DNA from: Octopus vulgaris
Lineage: Eukaryota
Length of the DNA stretch: 64,000 nt
Direction: 5' to 3'
Assembly: GCA_951406725.2 (NCBI GenBank)
Contig: OX597824.1
Coordinates: forward strand, 84,816,001-84,880,000
The notes under the pieces were generated by a model. It made no database searches. It had not been told where the DNA came from and worked only from the letters and a program-made list of their open reading frames with translations. Position numbers and translations under genes: made by a program. Positions 16,202 to 43,534 of the stretch are shown in pieces (position 1 is the first letter of the stretch; each line of letters opens with the position of its first letter).

Positions 16202-16251
<50 letters not shown>

Positions 16252-16468
16252 AGAGGTATTAGTGTCAAGAAGACCCAAAGGTGTCAGGTAATGCTGAGGA
16301 AGTGCTACGGACAGACTATAGTCAAGCTCCATGTTCGATAATGATACGAATGAGGAGTCCAACGTAGGTCGTGCATTAGCATATATATATGTGTGTATGT
16401 ATATAACAGATTGAGATAAAAAAAAAGAAAAGGCTGTGAATAGTTTTCAGAACATTTATAAAGAGAAG

Positions 16469-16516
16469 GTCTTACAGCTGTTTCCGGTATATTTTATATA
16501 ACCTTTCATCAGAGAC
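16469..16516 (-). ncRNA. Minimal type I hammerhead-like motif (left arm, mirror copy)
   Basis: exact reverse complement of 16653..16700. Confidence 0.62.
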
Positions 16517-16652
16517 TGTGCGAGAAAATGTTTCAGTAATTGTTGTTATAGAGAAGATATGAAATACAGAGTGAAGTGTTTTCATTCCTCCACTTCACTC
16601 TGTATTTCATATCTTCTCTATAACAACAATTACTGAAACATTTTCTCGCACA

Positions 16653-16700
16653 GTCTCTGATGAAAGGTTATATAAAATATACCGGAAACAGCTGTAAGAC
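16653..16700 (+). ncRNA. Minimal type I hammerhead-like motif (right arm of palindrome)
   Basis: gtct-CTGATGA-aaggttatataaaatataccg-GAAAC-agct-GTA-agac; stem I gtct/agac, palindromic ACAGCTGT stem III; base of stem II imperfect. Confidence 0.62.
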
Positions 16701-16758
16701 CTTCTCTTTATAAATGTTCTGAAAACAGCCTTTTTTTATTTCAATCTGTTAATCTTTA

Positions 16759-16815
<57 letters not shown>

Positions 16816-16981
16816 CGGGATCAGCCATCTGAATGTGGCTAGGGACAGGGCGGGGTGGTGGGGGTGTTACTGATGCATTTAGCCCCAGGCGACTATAGAC
16901 GTCACCAGAAGAGCCGACACCATCACGGTGTCCTTGCTAGCCTGCAAAGGGAGATCAGCCTCCCCGAAGATACGGATGCTA

Positions 16982-17024
16982 CACACAGACCGGTTTCGAG
17001 GTAGTCGCCTCTCGTCAGCGCATG
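16982..17024 (-). ncRNA. Minimal type I hammerhead ribozyme motif (Penelope-like element type)
   Basis: minus strand catgcg-CTGACGA-gagg cgacta cctc-GAAA-ccg-GTC-tgtgtg: full core, perfect stem II, palindromic ACCGGT stem III, stem I with G-U pairs. Confidence 0.75.
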
Positions 17025-17143
17025 GCAAGCACCGTTCTTCGTTGAGGGACTTCCTCTACAGGCTAGATATATATAGATTTTCACAGTAAACACAGTCACT
17101 GGCGTAGAAAATCTGTTCGATAACAATAATAAATCTCTGAGCG

Positions 17144-17229
<86 letters not shown>

Positions 17230-17460
17230 ATACATACATACATACATACATACATACATACATACATACATACATACATACATACGACGGGATTCTTTCA
17301 GTTTCCGTCTACCAAATCCACTCACAGAGCTTTGATCAGCCCGAGGCTAAAGTAGAAGACACTTACCCAAGGTGCCACGCAGTGGGACTGAACCCAGAAC
17401 CATGTGGTTCGTAAGCAAGCTACTTACCACACAGCCACTCCTGTATATATAGTTTATATG

Positions 17461-17892: not shown

Positions 17893-18520
17893 TTCTGAGC
17901 GCGTGTGTGTCTGTCATGCGTGCGGCACAGAACGTCATATGTAATTTCCATATTGTAAATACTTAACCGATTTAAGTTGGTAAATTTGCGTTGACGATTG
18001 GCTTCGAAGTGCTTACGTCATAATATTATGTTACTACAATATATTATTGTGGAAGCACGTTGCTTAGTGGTTAGGGTGTCAGCATCATGATCGTAGGATT
18101 GTGGTTTCGATTCCTGGACCGGGCGACGCGTTGTGTTCTTGAGCAAAACACTTCATTTCACGTTGCTACAGTCCACTCAGCTGGCAAAAATGAGTAACGC
18201 TGCGATGGACTGGCGTCCCGTCCAGCTGGGGAACACATACGCCATTGAAACCGGGAAACCGGGCCCACGAGCTTGGCTAGGCTTTAAAAAGGGCGAATTT
18301 ATTATTTTTTATAACATATTATTATCTAATTTCGTTGAGGCTTACTTGGCCTTTCATTCTTTCGGGGTCGATAAAATAAGTTCCATTTGAGTTCTGAAGT
18401 CGATGTAATCAATTTTCGCCTCTGCTCAAAATCGCTGGTCTTGTATCAAAGCAGGAAACAATTATGATATATTATTATAATATTACATGCATATTATAAT
18501 TATATATTATATTAACACTA

Positions 18521-42633: not shown

Positions 42634-43534
42634 ACATCATCCTCATCATTTAATGTCCATTTTCCAGTTTGACAGAGGTCTGGAGAGCCAGCAGCTACAC
42701 CAGGCTCCAGTCTGATCTGGCAATGTTTTTACAGCTGAATGCCTGTCCTAACATCAACCACTCCAAGAGTGTAGTGGGTGCTTTTTACGTGCCACCAGCA
42801 CAGGAGCCAATCAGGCAGGCCTGGCATTGATCACATTCAGATAGTGCTTTTTATGTGTCAATGGCACAGGAGCCAGTGAGAGGGTACGGGCATCAGCCAC
42901 ATTCAGATGGTGCTTTTTATGCGCCACCGGCATGGGAGCCAGTCAGGCAGACCTGGCATTGGCCACGTTCAGATGGTGTTTTTTACGTGCCACTGACATG
43001 GGAGTCAGTCAGGGAAAACTGGTATCAACCACGTTCAGATGGCACATTTTACATGCCACTGGAACAGGAGCCGATCAGTGGGCACTGGCCACAGCTATAA
43101 TTTTGGTTATACTTGGCTCAACAGGTTTTCTCAATATCATATCACCTGGCACATCAAGGGTACTCTTTAATGGGCCGGACATGCAACACTGGCATCGGCC
43201 ATGGCTGCAATCTCAATCACAGCATATCTCCAAAGATCTCGGTCTCCTGTCATTGCCTCTGTGAGGCCCAATGTTCGAAGGTCAAGCTTCACCACCTCAT
43301 CCCATGTCTTCCTGGGTCTACCTATTCCAGAGGTTCCTTCCACAGTTAGGATGTGGCACTTCCTCACACAGCTGTCCTCATCCATACATAACTCATGATC
43401 ATACCAGCGCAGTCATCTCTCTTGCACACCACATTTGATGCTTCTTATGTCCAACTTTTCTCTCTGGGCGCTTACACTCTGTCGTGTATGCACATCAACA
43501 TTACACATCCAGCGGATTATACTAGCTTCATTTC
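42634..43534 (-). mobile_element. Second copy of the same LINE 3' end with a tandem array in the UTR
   Basis: VEGTSGIGRPRKTWDEVVKLDL...DRDLWR; UTR-only copies near 36780-37030, 37295-37745, 41010-41190 (+), 55329-55612 and 56600-56720. Confidence 0.85.

Follow-up and report, generated by a model that had tools for sequence, protein, structure and literature searches.

Two (TA)n tracts in the genome of Octopus vulgaris enclose a GC-rich island that carries a hammerhead ribozyme motif on its minus strand. The locus raises the question of what kind of element the island represents and how such an element came to lie in a TA tract. The window analyzed, a stretch of 64,000 nucleotides, was originally predicted from its letters to hold here a second ribozyme-bearing retroelement family, "Penelope pLTR or retrozyme-like", close to another element with two further hammerheads.

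The hammerhead motif in the window

The GC content of the island is 52%, against 37% in the window as a whole. The hammerhead itself is present with the sequence and coordinates first given for it, including an intact core, a 4-bp stem II, a palindromic stem III, and a GUC site (Table 1). The elements CUGANGA, GAAA, and NUH, by which hammerhead cores are defined in PMC4209133, are all found in the window copy, and a helix I of 6 bp, a helix II of 4 bp, and a short palindromic helix III make up the canonical type I layout. The label "minimal", which the original prediction attached to the motif, does not apply in the sense of PMC4209133: the motif is canonical, and its 6-bp stem I extends via an internal loop into a rod of ~130 nt. 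Features of the minimal type of Penelope-like elements (PLEs), namely a helix II of 7–8 bp, a helix I of 4–5 bp, and an unpaired base 5′ of helix II, are not seen in it.

Table 1. Positions of the retrozyme copy, its hammerhead, and the adjoining elements in the window
Feature	Position	Strand	Basis or remark
Retrozyme unit, 5′-clipped, positions 1–332 of the 360-nt monomer, single arm	16815..17146	-	Genome matches
Long rod extending stem I, internal loop beside 6-bp stem	16936..17068	-	Folding; compensatory changes in sister lineages
Hairpin AGCCA..TGGCT and "short" 3′ end merging into (TA)n	16811..16840	-	Arm-end pile-up; putative RT start site 1
Second half of the ~45-nt "tail" motif common to sister families	17120..17146	-	Exact matches, arm ends; 3′ edge is putative start site 2
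(TA)n target, 3′ side of insertion	16757..16814		Sequence
(TA)n then (TACA)n, 5′ side of insertion	17147..17284		Sequence
Type I hammerhead	16982..17024	-	Descriptor match; covariation
Stem I, 6 bp	17024–17019 / 16987–16982	-	CATGCG with TGTGTG
Hammerhead core CUGACGA	17018–17012	-	Read from sequence
Stem II, 4 bp	17011–17008 / 17001–16998	-	GAGG with CCTC, loop CGACTA between
Hammerhead GAAA	16997–16994	-	Read from sequence
Stem III ACCGGU, palindromic	16994–16989	-	T at 16989
Predicted cut of GUC site	16988^16987	-	C is 16988
C-to-T change, position 1.1	16987	-	Cut-adjacent G-C pair becomes G-U
Older inverted element, unrelated, bearing two hammerhead-like motifs	16404..16756		Motifs 16473–16512 (-), 16657–16696 (+)

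A descriptor drawn up after the motif had been seen (stem I of at least 5 bp, 4-bp stem II, palindromic stem III) matches one site in the window and none in 200 shuffled windows. Rfam searches with 6 kb and with the island alone returned no hammerhead model, the matches being of the microsatellite, hairpin, or chance kind. The ribozyme caps the ~130-nt rod, with z = −6.2 for the 146 nt around the motif and z = −3.4 for the whole island.

The base after the cut is C (GUC^C, in a G-C pair) in 41 of the 42 copies that have a complete hammerhead segment; the T of the window copy is the exception and would have arisen by CpG decay. Helix I holds three G-U pairs in the window copy and two in copies of the family. 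Stem III can form either one A-U pair with a CCGG loop or two pairs with a 2-nt loop that cannot be closed. A dimer is therefore predicted to be necessary for cutting. The internal loop adjoins stem I, and loop 2 ends in an A that is invariant in all 27 aligned copies and may take part in a tertiary contact between loops 1 and 2.

A dispersed family of tandem 360-nt units

The genome searched consists of 227 contigs totalling 2.8 Gb. The island matches 121 places among the 40 scored of 1,501 candidates, and the 59 next-best full-length matches elsewhere in the genome are 96–99% identical to it. The tandem copies that had been expected were found, with a period of 360 nt. The exact core pattern occurs at least 105 times (control, 0), and a looser pattern finds at least 1,613 related cores (control, 0), a clan in which sister lineages have units of ~353 nt. 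A 33-nt motif over the unit junction is common to the family and at least one sister lineage, with 238 exact matches in both families together.

The sequence is therefore neither single-copy nor devoid of covariation: the collected paralogs are many, and their stems covary across sister lineages. Being multi-copy and tandem, and having no significant similarity to its neighbor, the island does represent a second, independent ribozyme-bearing family in the TA tract, as was proposed. Of the two identities offered for it, that of a retrozyme fits. Identity as a Penelope pLTR is not supported by the insertions and PLE families compared, yet the insertions do have Penelope hallmarks, so that each half of the proposal is in part correct. 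In 66 insertions the unit does not occur as the regular terminal repeat of an ORF, apart from one chimera (L067); this chimera aside, the copies are dispersed and have neither an LTR nor a linked coding element.

Animal non-LTR retrozymes have been described from mussel (350–390 bp) and axolotl (Rtz_331 and Rtz_353; Cervera and de la Pena 2020, PMC7229834). Like them, the octopus family consists of short, tandem, non-coding units in the range of 150–450 bp, each containing a single type I hammerhead and predicted to form a self-paired circle; it also shares with them duplications longer than 4 bp (11–13 bp in octopus) and coexistence with PLEs. The octopus stem III, one pair with a palindromic tetraloop, resembles that of HHR_Amex1, while the stem III of sister lineages, two pairs with a tetraloop, resembles that of HHR_Amex2 (PMC7229834). 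The GC content of the octopus family, ~50%, is at the upper edge of their range. Judged by all the features that can be tested on sequence, the 360-nt family is an animal non-LTR retrozyme.

Literature searches on hammerhead ribozymes and octopus returned no description of the 360-nt family by title or abstract. A 2026 octopus repeat annotation never uses the terms retrozyme, ribozyme, or hammerhead in its main text, and the family may be present without a name in its repeat library. Nor does the main text of PMC7229834 contain "inverted", "octopus", or "cephalopod". Parts of the unit, among them the ribozyme, are covered by contigs from runs that may be RNA; such contigs cannot reveal circles, ends, or strand and were given no weight as evidence of expression. 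In many sister lineages (L174–L228), stem II starts from a mismatch, C-A or U-U, at 10.1–11.1, where young-looking lineages have G-C.

Covariation and fold

Covariation was assessed in 27 copies from several lineages, selected with a pattern in which part of the core and of stem I is fixed. In 19 named pairs, 93% of the cells are standard pairs, and 9 of the 19 show change on both sides. None of 500 shuffles was as high, a significance overstated by the pattern-based choice and the kinship of the copies, and slid controls gave 16–56%. Separately from this test, stem III remains palindromic through five sequences (ACCGGT, ACTCGAGT, ACCCGGGT, ACTGCAGT, and ACTATAGT), and the outer stem of the rod is conserved in sister lineages with compensatory changes. 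Predicted circular folds of five natural units have z values from −3.5 to −7.1; a sixth locus yielded no complete unit. For family-A units folded as circles the values are −3.8, −4.8, and −5.5, with the core predicted to be unpaired in all three; part of the core is paired in the predicted circular folds of two sister units.

Anatomy of the insertions

The 66 distinct insertions were picked by best match or intact core, with arm lengths biased upward. Forty are inverted, with two back-to-back arms whose 3′ ends face outward, and 26 are single-armed. The 3′ ends fall at two fixed sites ~45 nt apart, at unit positions 337–344 (47 of 106 arms) and 21–27 (54 of 106), five being atypical. One long and one short end were found in every scorable inverted insertion (36/36; p = 1.5e-11 against a coin, with four unscorable ones left out), and the same arrangement was seen in 12 of 12 more from sister subfamilies, scored by eye among 20 further loci. 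The 5′ ends, on the other hand, are scattered: a single one of the 106 comes within 3 nt of the site cut by the ribozyme, where 2.1 would be expected. Arms are longer than one unit in 61 of 106 cases, the maximum being 2,037 nt. Duplications of 11–13 bp are clear at 5 of 65 loci (L026, L028, L056, L061, and L073) and probable at 3, the remaining loci lying in (TA)n, where a duplication is unreadable; the duplications show short target-RNA matches at the priming end. The insertions thus bear the hallmarks of Penelope, i.e., (TA)n targets, 5′ truncation, partial tandems, inverted arms, and a one-ended tail.

The window copy is a single arm from the short site, ~337 nt in length, joined to its target through TATA: the first TATA from 17147 onward corresponds to unit positions 357–360. 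The tail half at 17120..17146 sits at the 5′ end of this copy, and its 3′ edge is the "long" end elsewhere. Most of a 28-nt spacer, present in tandem copies, is missing. Having a single ribozyme and a stem I that is weakened, the window copy is probably an inert, dead passenger, that is, ordinary debris.

Many insertions resemble inverted repeats, and this resemblance, like the lack of an Rfam match, is what a satellite or MITE-like DNA-level repeat with a chance hammerhead-like motif would show. The inner ends of the arms, however, are truncations without a fixed position, and the tail makes the outer ends unequal; moreover, the stems and the core pair covary, and the descriptor is silent in the 200 shuffled windows. 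We regard this interpretation as largely refuted and extremely improbable.

Units diverge by 1.1–1.3% within arrays, against 3.6% between arrays, and arrays are subfamily-pure. Only 34 of 97 units have their nearest unit in their own array, so that a circular template is indistinguishable by this measure from a homogeneous linear multimer; private shared variants are few and give no decision between the two. In one five-unit arm (L062, C3:51539400–51542800) variants recur with a period of three (unit 1 equals unit 4, and unit 2 equals unit 5), which would reflect either a trimeric circular template or a block duplication. At L021, a sister-family copy lies 36 nt from a retrozyme array, and at L068 and L083 two retrozyme insertions occupy the same site of another repeat; these placements suggest target hot spots. 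Fixed A-to-I editing of the copies was considered and is not supported in this family (A>G at 21 sites and T>C at 16, p = 0.11; 12 and 10 among within-array singletons).

The core pair 3–8

In the window copy, positions 3 and 8 of the core form a C-G pair. CUGACAA takes the place of CUGACGA in 10 of 64 arrays, and A is found at position 8 in 148 cores, with U at position 3 as well in 79 of the first 100 listed. A separate search found 29 C3-A8 cores, 27 of which occur at 18 loci and have one loop type; subtracting these 29 from the 148 leaves about 120 U3-A8 cores. U3-A8 is the natural covariation of C3-G8 and has been reported active in vitro (PMC3088659, PMC4209133). Compared with the U3-A8 variants of those reports, the octopus case differs in that C-G, U-A, and mismatched C-A coexist in one lineage of ~10% divergence. 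Both core changes also turn up in contigs from runs whose labels name other organisms.

A tree of 34 units and 6 outgroups, computed with the two core columns dropped, shows the C3 group as a clade (100/99) nested in U3-A8, and monophyly of U3-A8 is rejected (AU p = 0.017). The C3-A8 clade is firm (98/97). Monophyly of C3-G8 receives 34% bootstrap and an AU p of 0.47 with the core columns dropped, so that C3-A8 may be either basal to C3-G8 or derived within it, and a grouping of C3-G8 with the outgroups is only marginally disfavored (p = 0.053). A history of the core pair from C-G to U-A and back to C-G appears likely. It is plausible that C3-A8 arose by CpG decay from C3-G8, G8 lying in a CpG; at locus L088, G8A is present in one arm and G8 in the other.

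The C3-A8 clade is as young as the others (1.6% between arrays) and includes multi-unit insertions, with arms of up to 1,056 nt. At one C3-A8 locus (L099), a base is missing at the cut site in both arms. The mismatched C3-A8 core is likely inactive in cleavage, a view that the G8C and C3G results given in PMC11167929 support only indirectly; a search for literature on G8A hammerhead activity returned nothing.

A candidate Penelope-like partner

Two autonomous families, PLE-1 and PLE-2, were compared with the retrozyme. The chimera L067 is a single insertion bounded by (TA)n, in which a retrozyme arm is joined to GIY-YIG endonuclease coding sequence and an inverted PLE-2 3′ arm; both of its arms carry the long end, against the one-long-one-short rule. 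PLE-2 is young, 150 of 150 scored matches being 100% identical over a 92-residue query, and has intact frames of 717 residues in four copies, with a unit of ~2.6 kb. Its motifs (RWK, DKT, CxCX5C, CxxC, and CxH) are the Hydra set of PMC8557442, section 11, and its clade is assigned from these motifs rather than from a tree. Like the retrozyme, PLE-2 targets (TA)n, and it has one long and one short end in all 12 inverted pairs visible among 24 loci, with the ends ~70 nt apart versus ~45 nt in the retrozyme. At all of 20 PLE-2 loci save the chimera, the 3′ end differs from that of the retrozyme. The PLE-2 terminal repeat (L170:2150–2580, C5) carries a variant hammerhead in which the core reads CCGAAGA, with C at position 4, the site is GUU, and stem III is nearly palindromic.

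PLE-1 is a high-copy family with Hydra-like motifs, a fragment of which adjoins a retrozyme array at L098; at L142:6545–8710 it has an intact frame of 722 residues, 39% identical to PLE-2. The L142 copy also has a long low-complexity TA/TG 3′ region with partial tandem copies. PLE-1 is not supported as the partner, as it has no DNA in common with the retrozyme and a canonical hammerhead was not found in it. The tail matches the PLE-2 ribozyme at 12 of 13 nt, which was taken as chance (E = 1.5). Pfam and PDB searches with the PLE proteins and a tested fragment gave no useful match; their look-alikes in a protein atlas carry HTH_animal, GIY-YIG, and RVT_1.

Comparison of the retrozyme with the two families revealed no significant sequence common to it and either PLE-1 or PLE-2, and the case for a partner therefore rests on one chimera together with shared habits. 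The mobilizing partner is likely of Hydra type; of the two families compared, out of thousands of PLE candidates, PLE-2 is the best candidate.

The same evidence bears on whether the unit could instead be the pseudo-LTR of an unseen autonomous Penelope-like element, its copies being 5′-truncated debris of that element. Every insertion hallmark is PLE-like, the L067 copy is joined to endonuclease coding sequence, and homology between a retrozyme and a pLTR has been reported in Xenopus (Li, Clavereau and Pollet 2026). Nevertheless, arms that continue past one unit run into another unit and never into a shared ORF in the 66 insertions, the PLE-2 loci have a 3′ end of their own with the one exception, and the ribozyme is canonical rather than of the pLTR minimal type. 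In our opinion, this origin is very unlikely.

A model of copying and the nature of the template

We consider it very probable, from the insertions as they stand in the genome, that the family is a non-LTR retrozyme copied into (TA)n by Penelope-type TPRT on both strands, from two fixed starts and with a template that the ribozyme cut does not end. The island is one clipped copy of this 360-nt retrozyme, whose non-coding tandem units are expected to cleave only in dimeric form; the enzyme that wrote it into the (TA)n tract likely came from a PLE, most likely of the Hydra clade. Tandem loci would be transcribed, and the units of the transcripts would pair via the palindromic ACCGGU and could be cut to monomers and circularized. 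The PLE protein would recognize the conserved tail region of ~45 nt and make a staggered cut of ~12 bp in AT-rich DNA, each cut strand then priming cDNA at a different edge of the tail. Reverse transcription would continue past the ribozyme site and cover as many as ~6 units, the template being either circular or a multimer that was never cut. Two cDNAs joining at their 5′ ends would give back-to-back arms; survival of the cDNA of one strand alone would give a single arm, as in the window copy.

Given the mismatched C3-A8 clade at 18 loci, jumping either does not require self-cleavage or relies on cleavage in trans, and the spread of this clade argues that cutting to monomers is not always needed. 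Taken further, the family could be a non-autonomous PLE that is always copied from an uncut linear multimer, with circles playing no role and the hammerhead kept for processing, stability, or escape from silencing. The C3-A8 spread with its arms of up to 1,056 nt speaks for such a template, as do the L099 arms without a cut-site base, the absence of a pile-up of 5′ ends at the cut, and the in vitro insertion of an anole PLE, which was unaffected by ribozyme mutants (PMC11167929). Arms of five to six units, however, would require of a linear model a separate way of array growth, and the subfamily-pure arrays and the period of three at L062 also count against it. Furthermore, the 3–8 pair was restored twice, which indicates that cleavage is under selection, and circles have been shown for coral, mussel, and axolotl retrozymes (PMC7229834). 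An always linear template is accordingly a substantial possibility, albeit one that we do not favor.

For the retrozyme copied from circles or uncut multimers, then, subfamily-pure arrays and the L062 period suit circles, and the C3-A8 clade suits uncut templates, unless its units are cut in trans. In our own reading of the dimer in PMC4209133, each junction of a double hammerhead is made of the enzyme strand of one unit and the cut site of the other; since C3-A8 keeps stems I and III, trans cleavage is structurally allowed. A more elaborate and rather doubtful scenario is that the retrozyme flipped from U3-A8 to C3-G8 via a still-jumping C3-A8 cheater, which would have been cut in trans by an active partner, then circularized, and copied by a dimeric Hydra-type enzyme priming both DNA strands at its two fixed sites; the palindromic stem III and the common stem I would let a dead unit pair with an active one. 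If true, dimer-dependent ribozymes would allow complementation, a neutral path over an otherwise lethal core mutation.

Relation to known elements

PLE insertions are known for 5′ truncation, partial tandems, an inverted 5′-truncated arm, a tail that is often one-ended, and (TA)n targets (Craig et al. 2021, PMC8557442). The insertion structures of the octopus retrozyme are alike, and (TA)n is the target of both. For another PLE studied in vitro, the tail is the stretch between two internal RT starts, with cutting and extension taking place on both strands (Frangieh et al. 2024, PMC11167929). Non-autonomous multicopy tandem PLEs are also on record, such as MRC1 (PMC8557442, PMC11167929). In contrast to the PLEs of these two papers, the octopus unit has no ORF, its tail is ~45 nt rather than 30–40, and the one-ended rule is strict (36/36). 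The anole PLE of PMC11167929 initiated without homology, whereas the octopus duplications show short target-RNA matches. As read from the 66 insertions and the two PLE families compared, the octopus family behaves as a non-autonomous PLE and does not qualify as a pLTR.

Mobilization of retrozymes by PLEs was proposed in PMC7229834, without insertion-site evidence. Li, Clavereau and Pollet (2026; bioRxiv 10.64898/2026.07.22.740005) reported co-occurrence and pLTR homology, mostly in vertebrates, and suggested local tandem amplification. The octopus unit differs in having no pLTR homology to the PLEs compared, and its arrays look as though they formed at insertion, both arms having the same subfamily variants and the ends being fixed.

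A PLE role in the return of retrozymes to genomes was put forward in PMC7229834 and gained support from homology in Li et al. (2026), leaving the question of enzyme and template. The octopus family adds to this a strict one-ended rule, a candidate enzyme, and a three-state core series. It makes an exact prediction of two starts ~45 nt apart, one per DNA strand, and a staggered cut of ~12 bp. A young candidate enzyme of Hydra type with intact frames makes mobilization testable, and the natural C-G, U-A, and C-A core states form a control series for testing if jumping depends on self-cleavage and on circles.

Neighboring repeats

The element at 16404..16756 is a neighbor and lies outside the retrozyme. 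As originally stated, the island is unrelated in sequence to the palindromic hammerheads nearby, the best match to the inverted neighbor having E = 0.25. We infer that three hammerheads within 600 bp are a by-product of shared (TA)n targeting and of the inverted neighbor rather than a functional cluster.

The family to which the neighbor belongs is AT-rich, older, and hammerhead-bearing; it forms an inverted pair here, is 84–93% identical to its best copies, and matches 44 places among the 40 scored of 2,175 candidates. Its hammerhead has a stem I of ~4 bp, a long stem II, a palindromic stem III (ACAGCTGT), and a GUA site, and is nearer to the minimal form of PLE hammerheads than is the retrozyme motif. 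No PLE coding match was found near members of this family at 18 loci. The stretch 16229–16380 appears to belong to the same family. Two repeats follow the TA tract, at 17285–17445 and 18050–18275, which we take to be SINE-like; the type at 17285–17445 also flanks several other loci. Farther along the window, 42777–43078 is a 66-bp tandem repeat of 4.5 copies with ~74% matches.
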